UHGV virus genome: UHGV-0112844
Length of the DNA stretch: 32,667 nucleotides
Source: a virus
Strand: one strand, 5' to 3'
Numbering within the stretch: the first letter of the stretch is position 1; the number at the start of each line of letters is the position of its first letter. A program made the translations under genes and the position numbers. Shown here piece after piece: positions 2,620 to 29,108 of this stretch. The notes beneath the pieces are model-generated. The model did not search any database. It was not told the DNA's origin and worked only from the letters and a program-made list of their open reading frames with translations.

Positions 2620-3087
2620 ATGCAATTCGTTTCGCCGGAACAGGCCGGGGAAAGTACCCAGGACGTTATTAAAAACACCAGTTTCTGGCCTGATGTCAGG
2701 GTTTCAGAGTTCCGCCGTGATATGCGCATGGATGGGAGTGTCACCGATCCACGCCTGCGTCTGGCGTTGCTGACAGCGATTGCTGAAGTTAACGCCGATC
2801 TTTATGAGTTCCGCGAGAAACAACGGGCGCAGGGGTATGCGAGCCTGGCCGACGTCCCTGCTGATGTGATCGACGGCGAAAGCCAGCGGCTCATGCTGTA
2901 TCGCCGTGCGGTGTTTTGCTGGGCAAAAGCAAACCTGGTTGAGCGCTATCGCGATTTTGACGCAACCGGCGACGGAAGCAAGAAAGCTGAAGATATCGAA
3001 ACAACCTTAGGCGAGCTGTGGCGCGATGTGCGCTGGGCGGAGTCCCGCCTGCGCGATATGCCGCATATGACGGTGGAGCTGATTTGA
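2620..3087 (+). CDS. L: head completion/stabilisation protein gpL
   Basis: 155 aa at the synteny position after M. Its stop overlaps the X start (ATGA). Confidence 0.8.
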   Translation: MQFVSPEQAGESTQDVIKNTSFWPDVRVSEFRRDMRMDGSVTDPRLRLALLTAIAEVNADLYEFREKQRAQGYASLADVPADVIDGESQRLMLYRRAVFCWAKANLVERYRDFDATGDGSKKAEDIETTLGELWRDVRWAESRLRDMPHMTVELI

Positions 3088-3290
3088 TGAAAGTGCGTGC
3101 GCATCAGTATGACACGGTGGACGCACTCTGCTGGCGCCATTACGGGCGCACGCAGGGAGTCACTGAACAGGTGCTGCAGGCGAATCCGGGGCTGGCTGAA
3201 TATGGCCCCTTTTTACCGCACGGGCTGCAGGTGGAGCTGCCGGACATTACGGCGTCAACCACTGCGCAGACTGTCCAGTTATGGGACTGA
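3087..3290 (+). CDS. X: tail protein gpX
   Basis: 67 aa. The ATG at 3087 overlaps the L stop. This is the conserved small tail gene before the lysis genes in P2-like phages. Confidence 0.7.
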   Translation: MKVRAHQYDTVDALCWRHYGRTQGVTEQVLQANPGLAEYGPFLPHGLQVELPDITASTTAQTVQLWD

Positions 3291-3293
3291 ACT

Positions 3294-3509
3294 ATGACGC
3301 TTGAACGAATCAGCGCCTTTATCACTTACTGCGTTGCCCTGCTTCTGGCATGGCTCGGCGATTTGTCTCTTAAAGATGTATCCACCATCACCGGTCTTGC
3401 GCTGGGAATTATTACTGCAGCGGTGACCTGTTATTTACGCTGGAAAGCCTACCAGCTGCTGCGGGACGGCAGAATATCCAGGGGGGAATATGAGTCCTTC
3501 AATCGTTAA
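3294..3509 (+). CDS. holin (small, 2-TM; possible pinholin)
   Basis: 71 aa with two hydrophobic segments and a charged C-terminus. It lies immediately upstream of the endolysin and overlaps it. Confidence 0.65.
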   Translation: MTLERISAFITYCVALLLAWLGDLSLKDVSTITGLALGIITAAVTCYLRWKAYQLLRDGRISRGEYESFNR

Positions 3510-4005
3510 GCGTTGCCTGGTCGGCGCGGTGCTGGCGATTGCCGCCACGCTGCCGGGTTTTCAGTCGCTTCATACCTCCGTCGAGGGGCTGAAACTGATT
3601 GCTGATTTCGAAGGGTGTCGCCTCCAGCCATACCAGTGCAGCGCCGGGGTCTGGACGGACGGGATCGGCAATACGTCCGGGGTAGTGCCGGGCAAAACCA
3701 TAACGGAGCGACAGGCCGCGCAGGGGCTGATTAATAACGTGTTGCTGACGGAAAAAAGGATTGAAGCCTGCCTGCAGGTTAAACCACCTCAGCATGTTTA
3801 CGATGCCCTGATCAGTATCGGCTTTAATGTCGGAACCGGGGCCATCTGCCGGTCAACAATGGTTTCTTACATCAATCGCCAGCAGTGGTGGCAGGCGTGC
3901 AACCAGCTCCCCCGCTGGGTTTATGTAAATGGTCAACGGAATAAAGGGCTGGAAAACCGGCGCGCCCGTGAGCTTGCCTGGTGTCTTAAAGGGGCAGGGG
4001 CATGA
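3490..4005 (+). CDS. endolysin, T4-lysozyme/GH24 family with N-terminal SAR-like hydrophobic segment
   Basis: Phage lysozyme signature (EGLKLIADFEGCRLQPY…WTDGIGNT). The N-terminus LVGAVLAIAATLPG is Gly/Ala-rich and resembles signal-anchor-release endolysins such as P21 R. Confidence 0.85.
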   Translation: MSPSIVKRCLVGAVLAIAATLPGFQSLHTSVEGLKLIADFEGCRLQPYQCSAGVWTDGIGNTSGVVPGKTITERQAAQGLINNVLLTEKRIEACLQVKPPQHVYDALISIGFNVGTGAICRSTMVSYINRQQWWQACNQLPRWVYVNGQRNKGLENRRARELAWCLKGAGA

Positions 4006-4957: not shown

Positions 4958-5396
4958 CCTGCAGAGGGTGGATGACTGGCTGGCGGCCCTGCTGGCGAAT
5001 CTGGAACCGGCAGCCCGCAACCGTATGATGCGACAGCTGGCGCAGGAGCTGCGCCGGTCGCAACAGCAAAACATCAGGCTGCAGCGCAATCCAGACGGCA
5101 CCGCCTTTGAGGCGCGCCGGGTGACGGCCAGAAGTAAAAAGGGGCGCATCAAGCGCCAGATGTTCGCCAAATTGCGCACCACTAAATACCTGAAAACCGC
5201 AGCCACTGCGGACTCTGCCAGCGTGCAGTTTGATGGGAAAGTCCAGCGCATCGCCCGTGTTCACCATTATGGTCTGCGTGATCGAGTCAGACGCAATGGC
5301 CCGGAGGCCCGGTACCCGGCACGCCGTCTTTTAGGCGTGAATGATGAGGTGGAAACCATCACCCGTGACACGCTGTTGCGCTGGCTGTCGGAGTGA
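4950..5396 (+). CDS. S: tail completion protein gpS
   Basis: 148 aa at the synteny position, overlapping the end of R. Confidence 0.8.
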   Translation: MDDLQRVDDWLAALLANLEPAARNRMMRQLAQELRRSQQQNIRLQRNPDGTAFEARRVTARSKKGRIKRQMFAKLRTTKYLKTAATADSASVQFDGKVQRIARVHHYGLRDRVRRNGPEARYPARRLLGVNDEVETITRDTLLRWLSE

Positions 5397-20570: not shown

Positions 20571-20596
20571 CAAAAAAGCCACTCATGTGAGTGGCT
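20571..20596 (-). terminator. rho-independent terminator for leftward (int-direction) transcription
   Basis: Perfect palindrome AGCCACTCAtgTGAGTGGCT with A6 on the plus strand, which is T6 after the hairpin on the minus strand. Confidence 0.6.
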
Positions 20597-20623
20597 TAAT
20601 TATATGATTCTAAAGCTAAAATT

Positions 20624-20670: not shown

Positions 20671-20765
20671 CCAAACTTAAACCTTGTAAAACAATAAGTT
20701 ACTTTAATTTCAACACCTTGCGCCGTCGAATAGTGTGGAATATGAAAGCATAGTGAATAGGTTTG

Positions 20766-20783
20766 CTGCCATTTTGCTGCCAT
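20766..20783. repeat. 18-bp direct repeat GCTGCCATTTTGCTGCCA (copy 2), putative integrase arm-type site
   Basis: See copy 1. It immediately abuts the int stop codon. Confidence 0.5.
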
Positions 20784-21796
20784 CAAATAAGATTTAAGGG
20801 GTTTAACTCCACAGCTTCTGTTAGATGGTCTGGGGCGAAATGAGCATAGCGCATCGTCACCTTAATATCAGTGTGTCCAAGGATACGCTGCAGTACAAGA
20901 ATGTTGCCCCCGCGCATCATAAAGTGGCTTGCAAATGTGTGCCGTAGAACGTGTGACAGCTGCCCGTCAGGTAGTTCAATCCCCGCTCGCTTAATCGCCC
21001 CACGAAACGCAGAATAGCACCCCGTAAAGACTGGTTTGGAAGTTCTTACTTTTGGAAGTATTTCGTAAAGCTCATCACTTATTGGAACGGCGCGGTTTTT
21101 CTTGCCCTTGGTTTTGATATAGGTGATTTTGCCGGGGCTGATTTGCTTGCCTGTAAGTGACTCCGCCTCGCCCCATCGTGCGCCGGTTGCAAGGCATATT
21201 TTGACGATGGTTACTAAATCTACCGCTTTACTTTTCTCACACTCTGCCAGCAGTTGCTTGACTTCTTCGACTGTTAGCCAGGCCAGCTCTGCCTCATCAA
21301 TTTTAAATTCCCGGACGTTTTCGAGCGGATTGGGCGCACTCCAGTCATCCAGCCTTTTCAGTTCGTTGAACATGGCGCGGAAATACGCCAGCTCAAGATT
21401 AACGGTGCGGGGTGTCACTGCTTTTACCCGATCAGAACGTGTAATTTTCCCGCTTAAACGTTGTTCACGGTAGGTTGCAAAAAGCTTGGCGTTAAATTCA
21501 GTTGCAAGAGGGTTGCCCATGGCGAAGCAGGCAAACTCCATCGCCCCCCTACGCTTGAGGCCATCAGAGAGTGTAACTCCGTGAGCATTGAACCAAGTTT
21601 CAACAAGGTCTGTAACCCGTCGCTTATCTGCTTTCTCTCCTAACCAAGGCTTATCCTGTGCTTGATCCTTACTGTGGCGTTCAAAGGCCATGGCTTCCCC
21701 TTTGGTGGCGAATTGGCGACGAATACGCCGCCCATCTCTACCGTTGGGGAAGACCTGAGCCTGCCACTTTCCATTGCTTAATTTGCTTACTGCCAT
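20783..21796 (-). CDS. int: tyrosine integrase
   Basis: 337 aa. The C-terminal catalytic motifs …HVLRHTFASH…LGHTDIKVTMRYAHF are present. It is adjacent to attP. Confidence 0.92.
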   Translation of the reverse strand: MAVSKLSNGKWQAQVFPNGRDGRRIRRQFATKGEAMAFERHSKDQAQDKPWLGEKADKRRVTDLVETWFNAHGVTLSDGLKRRGAMEFACFAMGNPLATEFNAKLFATYREQRLSGKITRSDRVKAVTPRTVNLELAYFRAMFNELKRLDDWSAPNPLENVREFKIDEAELAWLTVEEVKQLLAECEKSKAVDLVTIVKICLATGARWGEAESLTGKQISPGKITYIKTKGKKNRAVPISDELYEILPKVRTSKPVFTGCYSAFRGAIKRAGIELPDGQLSHVLRHTFASHFMMRGGNILVLQRILGHTDIKVTMRYAHFAPDHLTEAVELNPLNLI

Positions 21797-21805
21797 TGTG
21801 CAGGC

Positions 21806-22705
21806 CTATTGAGATAAAGAATTATTATCACGCATTAAGGTTTGCCACTGTTCTTCACTGAGGATTTTGAGCGGAACTCCTTTATTGTCACGATAATCAA
21901 TAGCCTGTTCTATCTTTCTTCCGAAGCTTTGAAATTTCCAATCCTTAGAGCTGAGGGCACCAATAATTAGATAGTCCAAATCTTGAGTAACACGATCAAC
22001 AATTTGGCAGCCAAGCTGTAAAAGGTCACTTTCACATTGTCTACGGGAGCCACATAGAAACTTACCAGTGAGACAGACTTTACTATCTGTAGGGTTAAAC
22101 TCATCAATTAGGTCAACAGGCGATGTTGTGGAATATCCATCCACAATACCCTCAGAAATATTTGAGCCAGTGAAAGCAGTAATTTCTTGTAATAATTTGG
22201 TGCGTTCTTCGTCTGTTATCACTCCATCACTCAGGATTGATTGAACAAGTTCGTAAAGATGTTTACCGGGATAGTTGCTTTTTAAAGCTGCATTTGTAGA
22301 TAAGAACCAGTTTAAATAGCTGATTTCTTCATCGCTCAAATGATAGTCGGAAGCAAGCCCCTTACATAGACCCTCTAGCAAATGCTTGTCAGAGTCAGCT
22401 GAGTAAAGGTCTATGTTAGGAGTATCCATCAACCCGCGTTGCATTTCATGGAGCAGGTCTTTCAATTCGTCTAATTCAGCTTTTTCAACTACACCATCCG
22501 AAAGAATTTCACTTATTTTATTTCTGATGCAGTTTACGAAATAATTTTGGGAAAGAACGTCTGATTCCATCAGCCATGTATCAAGGAAAATCATTTCTTT
22601 TTCACTTAGTTTCCCGTCACAGGTCATCCCTTCAATCAGATTGATTAAGTTAGCGATGGCTTTATCTCTATTATGTGTATAGTTGAAAGCGCTAAATTGA
22701 GTCAT
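21806..22705 (-). CDS. hypothetical moron protein: TerB-like repeat N-terminal region + C-terminal BRCT-like domain
   Basis: 299 aa. Four DG-x5-E-x3-L motifs (DGKLSEKEMIFL, DGVVEKAELDEL, DYHLSDEEISYL, DGVITDEERTKL) resemble TerB/DjlA-N folds. The C-terminus KVCLTGKF…LGCQIV…DYLIIGALSSKDWKFQSFGRKIEQA…GVPLKILSEEQW looks like a BRCT. GC is visibly lower than its neighbours. An RBS (aaggaa) lies 8 nt upstream, and the start is 11 nt downstream of the cI stop. Confidence 0.6.
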   Translation of the reverse strand: MTQFSAFNYTHNRDKAIANLINLIEGMTCDGKLSEKEMIFLDTWLMESDVLSQNYFVNCIRNKISEILSDGVVEKAELDELKDLLHEMQRGLMDTPNIDLYSADSDKHLLEGLCKGLASDYHLSDEEISYLNWFLSTNAALKSNYPGKHLYELVQSILSDGVITDEERTKLLQEITAFTGSNISEGIVDGYSTTSPVDLIDEFNPTDSKVCLTGKFLCGSRRQCESDLLQLGCQIVDRVTQDLDYLIIGALSSKDWKFQSFGRKIEQAIDYRDNKGVPLKILSEEQWQTLMRDNNSLSQ

Positions 22706-22716
22706 ACCAATATTCC

Positions 22717-23331
22717 TTATTCAGTAAACGTTATTTTGCTGATCACTCTGCCATTGGCTTCAATATCCGATGGTGTGCACTCAAAGGATGCGGGGCCATT
22801 TTCTACGCGTAAACGTCCGCCTGGAAGACGGTAAACCTGTCTGATACTCATAAAGCCATCTATTTCAATCAACCAGATTCCATCGTTGATCTCTCCCCTG
22901 AACTCGTCCACTAGATAGAACGAATTTTCAAACTTCACAATGAATGGGGCAGTTGTGTCTTGAGGTAAAAGGCGAGAGTCGTAGCGAACTTGGTCAGAGG
23001 ATGAAAAAATCCCGTTTGAGATTTCTTTTAATTGCAAAGGCAATCCACTGTCGCTATCTGCTTTTGTTGTGGGCAAGCCTTGTCCTGTAGTTAACCAAAG
23101 CATAGATGCACCTGTATCAAGATGGCAGGCAATGAGCCAGTCATGCGGAAAAGTATCGCGCATCCAACGGTTTGCCATAGTGCTCTGGGATACTCCAAGG
23201 TGATCACACAAAGCCTGTCTGGTACTGAATCCATAGGCCTGGAGGATACGTGTTATCGCTTCCTTTCCACCACTTTGAGATGGAAAGTTGTATTTTGAGA
23301 TCGCGGAAAGGGTCTCTTTTGTGTTTGACAT
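22717..23331 (-). CDS. cI: CI-like immunity repressor (phage 186 CI type)
   Basis: 204 aa. An N-terminal HTH (STRQALCDHLGVSQSTMANRW) is followed by a C-terminal oligomerisation-like domain. It is divergent from the apl/cII operon across an operator-rich intergenic region. Confidence 0.75.
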   Translation of the reverse strand: MSNTKETLSAISKYNFPSQSGGKEAITRILQAYGFSTRQALCDHLGVSQSTMANRWMRDTFPHDWLIACHLDTGASMLWLTTGQGLPTTKADSDSGLPLQLKEISNGIFSSSDQVRYDSRLLPQDTTAPFIVKFENSFYLVDEFRGEINDGIWLIEIDGFMSIRQVYRLPGGRLRVENGPASFECTPSDIEANGRVISKITFTE

Positions 23332-23365
23332 ATTTAAAATGCGATCCTATCATCGGTTTTGTGGT

Positions 23366-23428
23366 GTTCGGAATAATTGCGAATAGTTCCGAATAGTGAA
23401 GTTTTTAAACACAAACTGAGGAATAGTG
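23366..23428. promoter_or_regulatory. divergent lysis-lysogeny switch region with four direct GAATA(A/G)T(T/G) repeats
   Basis: GAATAATT(23371) GAATAGTT(23381) GAATAGTG(23391) GAATAGTG(23420). The first three are spaced exactly 10 bp apart, between the cI and apl starts. Confidence 0.45.
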
Positions 23429-23432
23429 CATC

Positions 23433-23669
23433 ATGAAAAGCAATTTTTCAATGCGCCCCAGCATCAACCTTGTGGTATCTGAGCCATTCATCACACTGGA
23501 TGAGTTCTGTCGCCGTACTGGCTACAAGCCTAGCTATGCCCGTCAAATGATCAGGGAAAACCGCCTGCCTATCAGGAAAAAAGCCGGAGTTAACAGCCTT
23601 ATCGAAATCAACATGTTCGCATTGACGATGGAAGCGGCCCAAGGCTGCGAAGTCGCAATGCAAGCCTGA
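23433..23669 (+). CDS. apl: Apl/Cox-like excisionase-transcriptional regulator
   Basis: 78 aa with HTH LDEFCRRTGYKPSYARQMIRENRLPIRK. It is the first gene of the rightward early operon opposite cI. Confidence 0.75.
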   Translation: MKSNFSMRPSINLVVSEPFITLDEFCRRTGYKPSYARQMIRENRLPIRKKAGVNSLIEINMFALTMEAAQGCEVAMQA

Positions 23670-23703: not shown

Positions 23704-24213
23704 ATGTTTGATTATCGTGTTTCCAAACATCCGCATTTTGACGAAGCCTGCCGGGCTTTTGCGCTGCGTCACAACATGGCGAAGCTGGCAGAACGCGCGG
23801 GAATGAACGTCCAGACGCTGCGTAACAAGCTGAACCCGGAGCAACCGCATCAGCTCACGCCGTCGGAAATCTGGCTGCTTACCGATCTTACTGAGGACTC
23901 CACGCTGGTTGACGGTTTTCTGGCTCAGATTCACTGCCTGCCATGCGTACCGATGAACGAAGTGGCAAAAGAGAAGCTGCCGCATTACGTCATGAGCGCC
24001 ACTGCTGAAATCGGACGTGTTGCCGCCAGCGCCGTATCGGGTGATGTGAGAACCACCGCAGGCCGCCGCGATGTTATCAGCAGCATTAACTCTGTTACTC
24101 GTCTGATGGCACTGGCTGCCGTTTCGATGCAGGCGCGTTTACAGGCTAACCCGGCGATGGCAAGCGCGGTGGATACCGTGACGGGCCTCGGCGCTTCGTT
24201 CGGTCTAATCTGA
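23704..24213 (+). CDS. cII: CII-like lysogeny establishment regulator (Phage_CP76 family)
   Basis: 169 aa. MFDYRVSKHPHFDEACRAFALRHN…AGMNVQTLRNKLNPEQPH… closely resembles 186 CII as recalled. Confidence 0.8.
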   Translation: MFDYRVSKHPHFDEACRAFALRHNMAKLAERAGMNVQTLRNKLNPEQPHQLTPSEIWLLTDLTEDSTLVDGFLAQIHCLPCVPMNEVAKEKLPHYVMSATAEIGRVAASAVSGDVRTTAGRRDVISSINSVTRLMALAAVSMQARLQANPAMASAVDTVTGLGASFGLI

Positions 24214-25027: not shown

Positions 25028-25254
25028 TGGCTGATTCAATGGACCTCGTACAGCAGCGCGTTGAAGAAGAACGCCAGCGCCACATCCACACCGCCCGCAA
25101 TAAGGCACCGGGCGTTTCCCGTGTTCTCTGCATTGATTGCGATGCGCCGATCCCGCCAGCTCGCCGCCGCGCCATTCCGGGCGTGCAGTGCTGCGTCACT
25201 TGTCAGGAAATTGCAGAGCTGAAAGGCAAACACTACAACGGGGGTGCTGTATGA
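25027..25254 (+). CDS. TraR/DksA-family C4 zinc-finger protein
   Basis: CIDCDAPIP…(17 aa)…CCVTCQE is the C4 finger spacing of phage TraR-like proteins. Confidence 0.75.
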   Translation: MADSMDLVQQRVEEERQRHIHTARNKAPGVSRVLCIDCDAPIPPARRRAIPGVQCCVTCQEIAELKGKHYNGGAV

Positions 25255-26108
25255 GCACTATCCTGAAATGGGCGGGAAATAAAACCGCCATCATGCCGGA
25301 ACTGATTAAGCACCTTCCTGCTGGCCCGCGACTGGTTGAACCTTTCGCGGGTTCATGCGCTGTAATGATGGCGACAGACTATCCTCATTATCTTGTCGCG
25401 GATATTAATCCCGATCTTATCAATCTCTATAAAAAAATTGCCCTTGATTGTGAAGCTTTCATATCACGCGCAAAAAATATTTTTGCGATTGCGAATAGAG
25501 AAGTGGCTTATTACAACATTAGGCATGAATTTAATCATTCCTCTGAAATTACTGATTTCATGAAAGCAGTATATTTCCTTTATCTGAATCGTCATGGTTA
25601 TCGTGGGCTGTGCCGCTATAACTTGAGCGGTCATTTTAATGTCCCTTACGGTAATTATAAAAATCCGTATTTTCCTGAAAATGAGATACGCGCTTTTGCA
25701 GAAAAGGCTCAAAGCGCAACGTTTATCTGTGCCAGCTATGACGAAACACTGGCGCTGCTGCGGACGGGTGATGTTGTTTATTGTGACCCACCATACGATG
25801 GCACGTTTACCGCTTATCACACTGCCGGTTTTACGGAGGACGATCAGTATCATCTGGCGTCTATTCTTGAACGCCGGTCATCAGAAGGTCACCCGGTTAT
25901 CGTGTCCAACAGCGACACGTCCCTGACCCGTTCGCTTTATCGTAATTTTACCCGCCATCGCATCACTGCAAAGCGCAGCATGGGCGTGGCTGCCGGTGAT
26001 AGTAAGTCCGCAGCGGAAATAATCGCCGTTTCAGGAGCAACACGCTTTAACCGGGTTTATTCCACACACGGGGATGTGTGCTCGGTTATTTTAGAGGTGC
26101 GGGCGTGA
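25251..26108 (+). CDS. dam: Dam-like N6-adenine DNA methyltransferase (MethyltransfD12 family)
   Basis: KWAGNK…EPFAGSCAV…[10 protein letters not shown]…VYCDPPY motifs. The ATG at 25251 overlaps the previous stop (ATGA). The track ORF 25137.. is an in-frame upstream extension. The centre of the gene is AT-rich. Confidence 0.85.
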
Positions 26109-28513
26109 CGGTAGGCAAGTTCGCGTCCCACAATGTAGCAACCACCGGCGGCTCGAATGAGGCCGCCGTGGCCTTTCCATGGAATAACCCAAAAAAAGCG
26201 GTTAATCCATATCTGGACCCGGCGGAAGTTGCGCCGGAGTCTGCGCTTTCAAACCTGATCGCTCTTTACGCTGCGGATAACGAGCAGGAGCAGTTGCGCC
26301 GTGAAGCGCTGAGTGATGAGGTATGGGAACGATATTTCTTCAATGAGTCCCGCGATCCTGTCCAGCGCGAAATGGAGCAGGACCGGCTGATTAGTCGTGC
26401 CAAAATGGCGCGCGAGCAGCAGCGTTTTAATCCTGATCTGGTCATTCTGGCTGACGTTAACGCCATGCCGCCCCACATCAGCAAGCCTTTGCTGGAACGG
26501 ATTAAATATTTCCATAGCCTGGGCAGGGCAAAGGCTTATTCCCGCTACCTGCGCGAAACAATCAGGCCGTGTCTTGAGCGGCTGGAGAGCGTGCGTGACA
26601 GTCAGGTGTCTGCGTCTTTCCGGTTCATGGCGAGCCATGACGGGCTGGAGGGGCTGCTGGTACTGCCAGAAATGAATCAGGATCAGGTCAAGCGCCTTTC
26701 CACGCTGGTTGCGGCACATATGAGCATGTGTCTTGATGCGGCCTGCGGTGATCTGTTTGTCAGTGACGATGTTAAACCAGAAGAAATCCGCCAGGCATGG
26801 GAAAGGGTTGCTGCAGAAGCCATGCGCCTTGAGGTCATCCCGCCAGCGTTTGAACGGTTACGCCGCAAAAAGCGCCGCCGCAAGCCGGTGCCTTATGAAC
26901 TGATCCCACCATCGCTGGCGCGTATGCTGTGCGCGGACTGGTGGTATCGCAAACTGTGGCAGATGCGCTGCGAGTGGCGGGAGGAACATCTGCGCGCCGT
27001 CTGCCTGGTCAACAAAAAAGCGTCCCCGTATGTCAGCTATGAAGCCGTGATCCACAAACGCGAGCAGCGCCGCAAATCGCTGGAGTTCTTCCGCTCGCAT
27101 GAGCTGGTCAACGAAGACGGCGACACGCTGGACATGGAAGACGTGGTGAACGCCAGCAACAGCAACCCGGCACACCGCCGTAATGAAATGATGGCCTGTG
27201 TTAAGGGACTGGAGCTGATCGCGGAAATGCGCGGAGACTGCGCAGTGTTTTATACCATCACCTGCCCGTCACGCTTCCACGCAACCCTCAACAACGGCAG
27301 ACCTAATCCGAAGTGGACCAGTGCCACTGTCCGGCAGAGCAGTGACTACCTGGTTGATACGTTCGCCGCTTTCCGCAAGGCAATGCACAAGGCCGGGCTG
27401 CGCTGGTATGGCGTCCGTGTGGCAGAGCCGCACCATGACGGCACCGTGCACTGGCATCTTCTGTGCTTCATGCGCAAAAAAGACCGCCGTTCCATCACCG
27501 CGCTGCTGCGTAAGTTTGCCATCCGTGAAGACCGCGAGGAGCTGGGCACCAATACCGGGCCGCGCTTCAAGTCCGAGCTTATCAACCCGCGCAAGGGTAC
27601 GCCGACCAGCTATATCGCCAAATACATCAGCAAGAACATCGACGGGCGCGGGCTGGCTAAAGAAATTAGCAAAGAAACAGGCAGATCACTGCGTGACAGC
27701 GCCGAGCATGTCAGCGCCTGGGCGTCACTGCACCGTGTCCAGCAATTTCGCTTCTTTGGCATTCCGGGGCGTCAGGCATACCGCGAGCTGCGCTTGCTGG
27801 CTGGTCAGGCTGCGAGAGTGCAGGGCGAACGCAAAGCGGGTGAGCCGGTACTGGATAATCCGCGTCTGGATGCGGTGCTGGCGGCGGCTGATGCGGGCTG
27901 CTTTGCCACCTACATCATGAAGCAGGGCGGTGTGCTGGTTCCCCGCAAACATCACCTTGTCCGCACGGCATATGAGCTTAACGACGAGCCGAGCGCCTAC
28001 GGCGATCACGGTATCCGTATCTATGGCATCTGGTCCCCGATTGCGGAGGGCAAGATTTGCACGCACGCGGTGAAGTGGAAAAAGGTTCGTAAGGCCGTTG
28101 ACGTTCAGGAGGCGGCAGCCGACCAGGGCGCTTGCGCCCCTTGGACTCGTGGCAATAACTGTCCCCCTGTTGAAAATCTGAACAAATCAGGGGGTGATTT
28201 ACCCGATATTAAAACCATGGATGAGAAGGAGTTGCAGGAATATCTCCACAACATGGGTCAGAAGGAACGGCGGGAGCTGACAGCCAGGTTAAGGCTGGTA
28301 AAACCGAAGCGGAAAAAAGCATACAAACAGAATATTTCGGATCAGCAGCGCCTGCAGCTTGAGGCAGAGCTGAGTTCAAGAGGGTTCGATGGTAGCGAGT
28401 CAGAGATTGACCTGCTTCTGCGCGGCGGCAGTATTCCGTCAGGTGGCGGGCTGCGTATTTTTTACCGCAACTACCGCCTGCAGGAAGATGACAAATGGCG
28501 TCAGTGGTACTGA
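26105..28513 (+). CDS. A: replication initiation protein gpA (rolling-circle initiator)
   Basis: Conserved …[25 protein letters not shown]…[12 protein letters not shown]…AWAS…FRFFGIP…AYRELR block. The GTG at 26105 follows a GAGG RBS and overlaps the dam stop. The ATG at 26078 is the alternative start. Confidence 0.85.
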
Positions 28514-28874: not shown

Positions 28875-29108
28875 ATGCGCATTGAAATAATGATCGATAA
28901 AGAGCAGAAGATTAGCCAGGCTACACTGGACGCCCTTGAATCCGAGCTTTACCGTAATTTGCGCCCTCTGTATCCCAAAACAGCAATTCGTATCCGTAAG
29001 GGCAGCGCCAACGGCGTTGAGCTGAGCGGGTTAAAACTGGATGAAGACAAAAAGCGAGTGATGGAAATAATGCAGCAGGTCTGGGAGGATGACAGCTGGT
29101 TACACTAG
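28875..29108 (+). CDS. DinI-family protein
   Basis: MRIEIMIDKEQKISQATLDALESELYRNL…MEIMQQVWEDDSW aligns with E. coli DinI (MRIEVTIAK…LQETWES). Confidence 0.75.
   Translation: MRIEIMIDKEQKISQATLDALESELYRNLRPLYPKTAIRIRKGSANGVELSGLKLDEDKKRVMEIMQQVWEDDSWLH

Follow-up and report, generated by a model that had tools for sequence, protein, structure and literature searches.

In this study, we analysed a 299-amino-acid (aa) open reading frame (ORF) that lies between the repressor gene cI and the integrase gene int of a P2/186-like prophage, UHGV-0112844. The window is the whole 32,667-nt stretch of this genome, and all coordinates refer to it. The ORF (21806..22705, minus strand; ATG start at 22705, stop codon at 21806-21808) is a cargo gene that related prophages carry, lack, or replace, and its product joins a duplicated acidic helical domain to a BRCT domain with a predicted phosphate-binding pocket. 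We propose, with a probability of roughly 0.45, that this protein is a lysogen-expressed binder of DNA ends or nicks that acts in phage exclusion.

The structural genes of the window match those of Peduoviridae (for example, Yersinia phage MLG42 and the Salmonella phages RE-2010 and SEN8) with 81-85% nucleotide identity. The control region follows the 186 pattern, with CI, the 299-aa ORF, and int encoded on the minus strand and an apl-like gene and cII on the plus strand. The first gene of the lysogenic operon encodes a 186-type CI repressor (22717..23331, minus strand; PF07022, 3e-27; PF16452, 3e-22) and the last a tyrosine integrase (20783..21796, minus strand; PF24624 and PF00589; ATG at 21796). 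The three genes are separated by spacers of 11 nt, from the cI stop codon (22717-22719) to the ATG of the cargo ORF (22705), and 9 nt, from the stop codon of the ORF to the int ATG. An AAGGA ribosome-binding site of the ORF, read from the sequence (22714..22718, minus strand), overlaps the cI stop codon by 2 bases and otherwise occupies the spacer. The minus-strand scan found no terminator-like hairpin between cI, the cargo ORF, and int, and the first one (20576..20597, minus strand) lies downstream of int. Likewise, no promoter-like site was found in the 11-nt spacer, no terminator-like site flanks the ORF, and a strong pR-like promoter (TTGACA-17-TATCAT; 23325..23353, plus strand; consensus scan) is directed away from the operon. 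Because the spacers are short and no terminator-like site occurs until after int, co-transcription of the cargo ORF with cI from pL is the simplest reading, and the protein would therefore be made in lysogens. This layout bears out the original prediction, made from the sequence alone, that the gene sits inside the lysogenic operon, on the cI strand and upstream of int. An internal int promoter was considered and rejected: weak sites are present at 21891-21864 and 21848-21821 in the 3' end of the ORF, and five sites were found against 5.4 expected from shuffled sequence.

The cargo ORF has a GC content of 0.383 (0.347 at third codon positions) and is the lowest 900-nt stretch in the whole 32.7 kb, compared with a window mean of 0.537 (standard deviation 0.051 in 900-nt windows), in agreement with the predicted AT-richness relative to the surroundings. 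The GC contents of cI (0.45) and int (0.50) fall short of the mean too, by smaller margins. Using the window CI as the query, we collected 80 related loci from IMG/VR and scored the cI-int interval of each. The slot holds the BRCT cargo gene in 29 loci (gap of 911-924 nt) and is empty in 14 (12-42 nt). In another 36 it is filled by other small low-GC genes, namely a 230-nt insert encoding a lipoprotein-like peptide of ~62 aa (17 loci), an 85-aa transmembrane ORF (13 loci), or a 182-aa signal-peptide ORF (6 loci), and in the last locus int lies outside the fetched sequence. All alternative cargos have GC contents of 0.38-0.41. Gene-less relatives encode an Int that is 98.8% identical and a CI that is 88-89% identical to those of the window. 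In one of them (L164), homology with 92-94% nucleotide identity in the flanks stops at 22712, 5 nt past the cI stop codon, and restarts at 21785, 11 nt inside int. These breakpoints delimit a swapped cassette of 926 nt (21786..22711, minus strand), in place of which L164 has 230 nt. In RE-2010, int abuts the repressor gene and the slot is without a gene, and two prophages in complete E. coli genomes (79% identity) have another gene there. A search of INPHARED for near-identical DNA gave a single match, of 276 nt between the apl region of the window and a Klebsiella phage.

These data show that the cargo ORF is a constrained, horizontally exchanged cassette and not a fixed part of 186-like phages. 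The suspected acquisition of the gene is thus upheld by a variable slot with sharp homology breakpoints, and the gene is not universal among 186-like prophages, as RE-2010 and the 14 empty-slot loci demonstrate. The term moron, used in the original prediction, holds for the presence/absence polymorphism and atypical composition of an exchangeable acquired cargo; it does not hold for the transcription unit, because the gene has no promoter or terminator of its own and appears to ride on the cI transcript. Examples of the alternative cargos are the ~62-aa lipoprotein-like peptide (MKKLMAIVTLGLVFLATQPSYA...) of L164 (~5157-5345), the 85-aa transmembrane ORF of L197 (5112-5369), and the 182-aa signal-peptide protein of L187 (5140-5688), all from IMG/VR. 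The 182-aa ORF also occupies the slot of the E. coli PSS-07 prophage (WP_124793599; L140, 3518-4066). All three alternative cargos are envelope-directed, which is typical of superinfection-exclusion proteins.

A sequence search found 124 homologues of the window protein, and an exhaustive profile search found 851 clusters (50% identity) at E ≤ 1e-30 and 2,601 at E ≤ 1e-10. The family has two forms: a full-length form of ~295 aa and a short form of ~210 aa that consists of one helical module and the BRCT domain. Longer members are fusions to a LigA-type HhH2 with a second BRCT domain, or to a DEDDh exonuclease, as in P0265. Hosts of the homologues include Edwardsiella, Salmonella, Citrobacter, Serratia, Providencia, Klebsiella, Pectobacterium, Pasteurellaceae, Aeromonas, and Vibrio, among others, and members are carried by Pseudomonas phages too. 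The window protein matches PHROG 3989 over its full length (E 3.2e-95; query 4-293, profile 5-294 of 296), and the function category of this PHROG is unknown. Across 35 distinct alleles (≥75% amino-acid identity), the ratio of nonsynonymous to synonymous substitution rates (dN/dS) is ~0.07 and is alike in all four segments of the protein; the family is under purifying selection.

The only name that databases give to homologues is "BRCT domain-containing protein", apart from an erroneous label, "NAD-dependent DNA ligase", in records such as those of Kappa kp3 and several Pseudomonas phages. The ligase label was rejected: the window protein scores 22.1 bits against TIGR00575 (cut-off 444), and only residues 206-254 align, to positions 586-634 of 652. 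Because the adenylation, OB, Zn, and HhH domains of LigA are absent and the score is far below the cut-off, the window protein is not a ligase. Pfam and NCBIfam profile searches found no catalytic domain of any kind in the 299 residues. Our literature search found no report on the function of the family, with the original K139 control-region paper outside the reach of the search; an apparent match, "BRiC", is an unrelated acronym.

The C-terminal domain (aa 206-299; 21809..22090, minus strand) has the BRCT fold in an AlphaFold2 model, with the order beta-alpha-beta-beta-alpha-beta-alpha. The query alone has no match to Pfam BRCT at E ≤ 1; PF00533 is matched by 19 of 25 homologues with 35-87% identity (best E 9.7e-9), and the family profile matches the PDB BRCT domains of Rad4, RFC1, and LigA at 2e-5 to 3e-3. 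In structures of RFC1 and BRCA1 BRCT domains, an S/T-G pair in the beta1-alpha1 loop, a basic residue at the start of helix alpha-1, and a lysine at the start of helix alpha-2 form a phosphate pocket, with which RFC1 holds the 5' phosphate of recessed DNA ends. When the window protein is aligned to RFC1 p140 with HMMER, T213-G214 corresponds to T415-G416 and R221 to R423, and in the model K264 lies at the start of the predicted alpha-2 (the N-terminus of helix 262-274). The conservation of these residues was counted over 178 aligned domains, nearly all from representatives with ≤50% identity, and is high for T213 (154/166), G214 (164/166), R221 (158/166), and K264 (155/158). The alignments and the model therefore place the domain in the LigA/RFC1-type phosphate-binding class, with a predicted pocket that appears intact. 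A BRCT-like C-terminus had been read from the sequence beforehand, and this assignment stands. The domain shares the T-G...R signature with the BRCT domains of LigA and RFC1 p140 but differs from both by an extra conserved S-(R/K)-D-W insert ahead of helix alpha-2. It is basic in most homologues (pI ~9); its pI in the window protein is 6.1.

The AlphaFold2 model, built on a 25-sequence alignment (pLDDT, the predicted local confidence score, 83.8), contains nine helices (residues 3-178) and a disordered acidic linker (183-205) ahead of the BRCT domain (206-299). The helices form two modules. Module 1 (aa 8-95; 22421..22684, minus strand; helices 3-28, 35-47, 55-68, and 75-93) carries the motifs D30-x6-E37 and D70-x6-E77, and module 2 (aa 99-182; 22160..22411, minus strand), its duplicate, carries D120-x6-E127 and D160-x6-E167. 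The two ~85-aa modules share 32% identity (E 4e-9), and module 2 is the sole helical module retained in the short homologues. The linker (22091..22159, minus strand) is predicted to be disordered, with pLDDT <50 at residues 183-193, and has a net charge of -5. The N-terminal domain as a whole is strongly acidic (mean net charge -14, pI ~4.5). All four D-x6-E motifs are located at helix-loop-helix junctions and are well conserved among family representatives, as seen for D30 (109/113) and E37 (112/114) in module 1 and for D120 (155/161), E127 (159/161), D160 (145/160), and E167 (141/162) in module 2. The four DG-x5-E repeats of the original prediction are accordingly present and conserved family-wide, except that three begin with DG and one with DY.

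Their assignment to TerB did not withstand profile and structure comparison. Pfam TerB (PF05099) has no match on the query and none at E ≤ 0.01 among 25 full-length members, and when the N-terminal domains were compared on their own, 3 of 18 gave sub-threshold matches (best E 0.0052). One short motif is hit, below threshold and about equally weakly, by each of the models for TerB, DUF533, SHOCT_2, and EF-hand. Alignment with the TerB-like domain of DjlA by hhalign covers 20 residues only (DjlA 137-156, query 154-173) with a probability of 1.6%, and no structural match to solved TerB-like domains was found. What remains of the likeness to TerB and TerB-like proteins (PF05099, DUF533, and the DjlA N-domain) is a short helix-loop-helix motif, (A/S)DG-h-h-x-x-x-E, that is, a D(G)-x5-E resemblance. 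These results show that the N-terminal domain is a novel duplicated acidic helix-loop-helix domain.

Orf2 of Vibrio phage K139 (NP_536630) is a full-length homologue of the window protein (32% identity over residues 6-291, 96% of the length; E 2e-39) and, together with Kappa kp3 and the rest of PHROG 3989, is among the closest known relatives of that protein. Orf2 is likewise ~300 aa, and its gene comes directly after cI in the lysogenic operon of a P2-like phage, an operon that continues to int; this phage differs in having an additional gene, glo, between orf2 and int (cI-orf2-glo-int). In the K139 record, the mapped start of lysogenic transcription (PL) precedes cI, orf2, glo, and int, and glo is annotated as involved in phage exclusion. 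The lambda rexAB genes and K139 glo are accessory genes co-transcribed with, or adjoining, a repressor gene, so that the likeness to them is positional and regulatory; neither is related to the window protein in sequence or domains.

PADLOC returned no Rex or other known defence system for the window protein and a single partial match, to the unvalidated candidate PDC-S48 (query 147-257, profile 271-387 of 411; E 1e-6). The likeness to PDC-S48 and other DEDDh-exonuclease-BRCT proteins (PRK06195-like) comprises the last helices of a module, the linker, and the BRCT domain. The window protein differs in lacking the exonuclease domain and in having two helical modules, and the match does not extend over the full length. 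It resembles most closely the targeting portion of PDC-S48/DnaQ-BRCT proteins and the BRCT domain of LigA/RFC1, and is a member of neither group. The expectation that it would correspond to no named phage-defence or lysogeny protein is borne out by this partial match, by the unassigned function of PHROG 3989, and by the negative literature search.

Beyond what had been predicted, a homologue occupies the same position in K139, and the family recurs beside the repressors of unrelated temperate phages. We surveyed 130 loci with a crude ORF caller and clustering. Of these, 56 have the gene immediately after, and codirectional with, a CI gene of the 186 or K139 type, and 64 have it immediately before int. 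A short HTH_3 repressor and then a 205-aa membrane protein precede it in 15 loci, and in Pseudomonas siphophages the short form follows a CI-like repressor, again in the same direction. In 18 lambdoid prophages, it is arranged tail-to-tail with an HTH_3 + S24 CI gene, with an overlap of 9-18 nt at the 3' ends; this convergent arrangement (L003-L005, L021-L031, and L133-L139) is conserved over Citrobacter, Providencia, Proteus, Serratia, and Rosenbergiella. A partnership with one repressor type was rejected, since the gene occurs beside 186-type CI, K139 CI, a short HTH_3 repressor with the membrane protein, and lambda-type CI. Some loci have a further gene after the BRCT gene (+1) in the same slot, which encodes an Abi_alpha protein (PF14337, 2e-49; 276-283 aa) in L122 and L132 and an HNH_2 endonuclease-like protein (PF13391, 2e-14; 409 aa) in L099-L101. 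In the P2-like loci L113-L117, L128, and L129 (~2700-3900), two BRCT genes are present in tandem, the one directly upstream encoding a 392-aa protein with a weak WYL match and PF00533 at E 2e-5.

Outside prophages, the homologues in L037, L038, L039, and L053 have 27-37% identity to the window protein; defence neighbours are present in these four loci and in L006. Two gammaproteobacterial contigs of metagenome-assembled genomes contain the BRCT gene followed by PDC-S05, preceded by SIR2-HerA in one (L037, 902-5881) and by the Lamassu genes LmuA-LmuB in the other (L038, 384-5881). Because the BRCT gene and PDC-S05 are common to both and the upstream systems differ, the two contigs are as expected of a defence-island hotspot with swapped systems. 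In L039 (1535-4849), a DRT reverse transcriptase (RTasPolA, 2.6e-173) and a 222-aa DEDDh exonuclease precede a full-length BRCT homologue. The exonuclease, which matches PDC-S48 positions 7-173, is encoded by a gene that runs 7 nt into the beginning of the BRCT gene, and the pair looks like PDC-S48 divided between two genes. In L053, PD-Lambda-1 is located two genes from the BRCT gene. As judged from gene order and domain matches, the surveys show that the family tracks phage immunity regions and defence islands and appears to be modularly combined with a DEDDh exonuclease elsewhere. The defence-island contexts of the distant homologues lend indirect support to the analogy with exclusion genes.

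We propose the following pathway for phage exclusion by the window protein. The protein would be made in lysogens from the repressor transcript (pL), and its BRCT domain would read a 5'-phosphorylated DNA end, nick, or gap, for example at the cos ends of an infecting phage or in its replication intermediates. The N-terminal domain may then block processing of this DNA (ligation, circularization, or replication) or recruit a host factor such as an exonuclease, and the lysogen would be protected from superinfecting phages. In the PDC-S48 candidate defence proteins, a DEDDh exonuclease is joined to a BRCT part; the window protein would correspond to their targeting half, without the built-in nuclease. 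To our knowledge, a blocking mechanism based on a DNA-end reader is not represented among characterized defence systems. We consider rather improbable the wider claim that nuclease-free BRCT DNA-end readers are a new, widespread class of prophage immunity, acting by DNA capping, by competition with LigA, or through a recruited host exonuclease. If true, it would also account for the modular DEDDh-BRCT (PDC-S48) proteins of defence islands.

Several observations weigh against a role in exclusion. The protein contains neither a nuclease nor any other effector domain, which leaves it without a direct means of killing or degradation, and BRCT domains can bind phosphoproteins instead of DNA. The consensus scan of the window missed the pL promoter, and in the lambdoid prophages lysogenic expression of the BRCT gene is not established because the gene is convergent with cI. 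PDC-S48 is an unvalidated PADLOC candidate on which we found no paper, and the similarity to it is confined to residues 147-257. Defence genes were mapped to only ~6 of 24 non-prophage loci, a count that has no statistical background, and many distant homologues adjoin housekeeping genes (BCCT, ProV, and LacI). In addition, the literature search found no experiment on any family member.

An unlikely alternative, which nevertheless fares best among the competing explanations, is that the protein modulates lysogeny or induction: the BRCT domain would sense nicks or gaps and tune the repressor, integration/excision, or induction, and would not be directed at foreign phages. The BRCT domain is a classical module of the DNA damage response, and the gene both lies between cI and int and adjoins a repressor gene in four unrelated immunity-region architectures. 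This very diversity, at least four repressor families, argues against a specific repressor partner, and because phages with a 98.8% identical Int and an 88-89% identical CI lack the gene, it is dispensable for the switch. Weak motif-level matches to CII/YmfL-type proteins (NF041471, 3.5e-5; PHROG 101, 7e-5) would suit a modulator, but they cover ~30 residues and are far below cut-offs, and homologues occur in defence islands with no repressor nearby.

Somewhat less probable still is an anti-defence role, in which the protein protects DNA ends for the phage, either as a Gam-like cap or as a nuclease-less decoy against DEDDh-BRCT proteins of the PDC-S48 type. Genes of this kind are normally early lytic, whereas the window gene belongs to the repressor operon and pR points the opposite way. 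The protein does have the same helical module and BRCT domain as the exonuclease fusions, minus the nuclease, and its acidic N-terminal domain (net charge ~-14, pI 4.5) recalls protein inhibitors and DNA mimics. However, chromosomal homologues are found inside host-side defence islands, and the overlap of the exonuclease and BRCT genes in L039 suggests that their products are partners rather than antagonists. A conversion gene that benefits the host independently of phages, as a repair/tolerance adaptor or a TerB-like metal/stress factor, is very unlikely: the conserved D-x6-E motifs, which are of a pseudo-EF-hand/TerB-like kind, could coordinate metal ions and some homologues have housekeeping or transport neighbours, but TerB membership failed, no TerA, TerC, TerD, or TerZ partner was seen in any context, and prophage immunity regions and defence islands are the strongest context signal.

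Other features of the window were noted in passing. The pR-like promoter drives the apl-like gene (23433-23669, plus strand; ORF call) and the CP76-type cII gene (23704-24213, plus strand; ORF call and domain match) and marks the switch region upstream of cI. Between this promoter and the apl start, three copies of ACTATTC and one of ATTATTC are arranged in a 10-bp register on the minus strand, spread over 23371-23397 and, for the one that stands 30 bp off, 23421-23427. The window has five copies of ACTATTC in all, and a fourth, besides these three, (20728-20734, minus strand) lies just downstream of int, near the expected attP. The repeats resemble, by sequence and spacing, Apl/Cox-type operator repeats at the switch and att. 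A second sharp low-GC patch (0.353 at 25400-25700) is located inside a 323-aa ORF (25137-26108, plus strand), suggesting that this ORF is a mosaic or recombinant gene. We took it as a Dam-type DNA methylase by position alone, since the equivalent place in the related E. coli prophage is annotated as a DNA adenine methylase gene. Finally, a 77-aa ORF (28875-29108, plus strand), DinI/Tum-like by eye alone, is present in a short region of lower GC, which is bounded by the replication gene (26078-28513) and the portal gene. Large defence cargo is often found in this interval in P2-like phages; the window has no large cargo there.

If the protein excludes phages as proposed, a BRCT-based, enzyme-free sensor or blocker would be added to the anti-phage mechanisms, and hundreds of 50%-identity clusters in Enterobacterales, Vibrio, Aeromonas, Pasteurellaceae, and Pseudomonas phages would be concerned. 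K139 orf2, which has been unassigned beside the exclusion gene glo since the control region was sequenced, would gain a function. The gene is small, single, and cleanly bounded, and the hypothesis is therefore directly testable. Whatever the function of the protein, the cI-int junction of 186-like prophages is a precise cassette-exchange slot with at least five alternative low-GC cargos, and it will be useful to mine for further lysogen-expressed factors.

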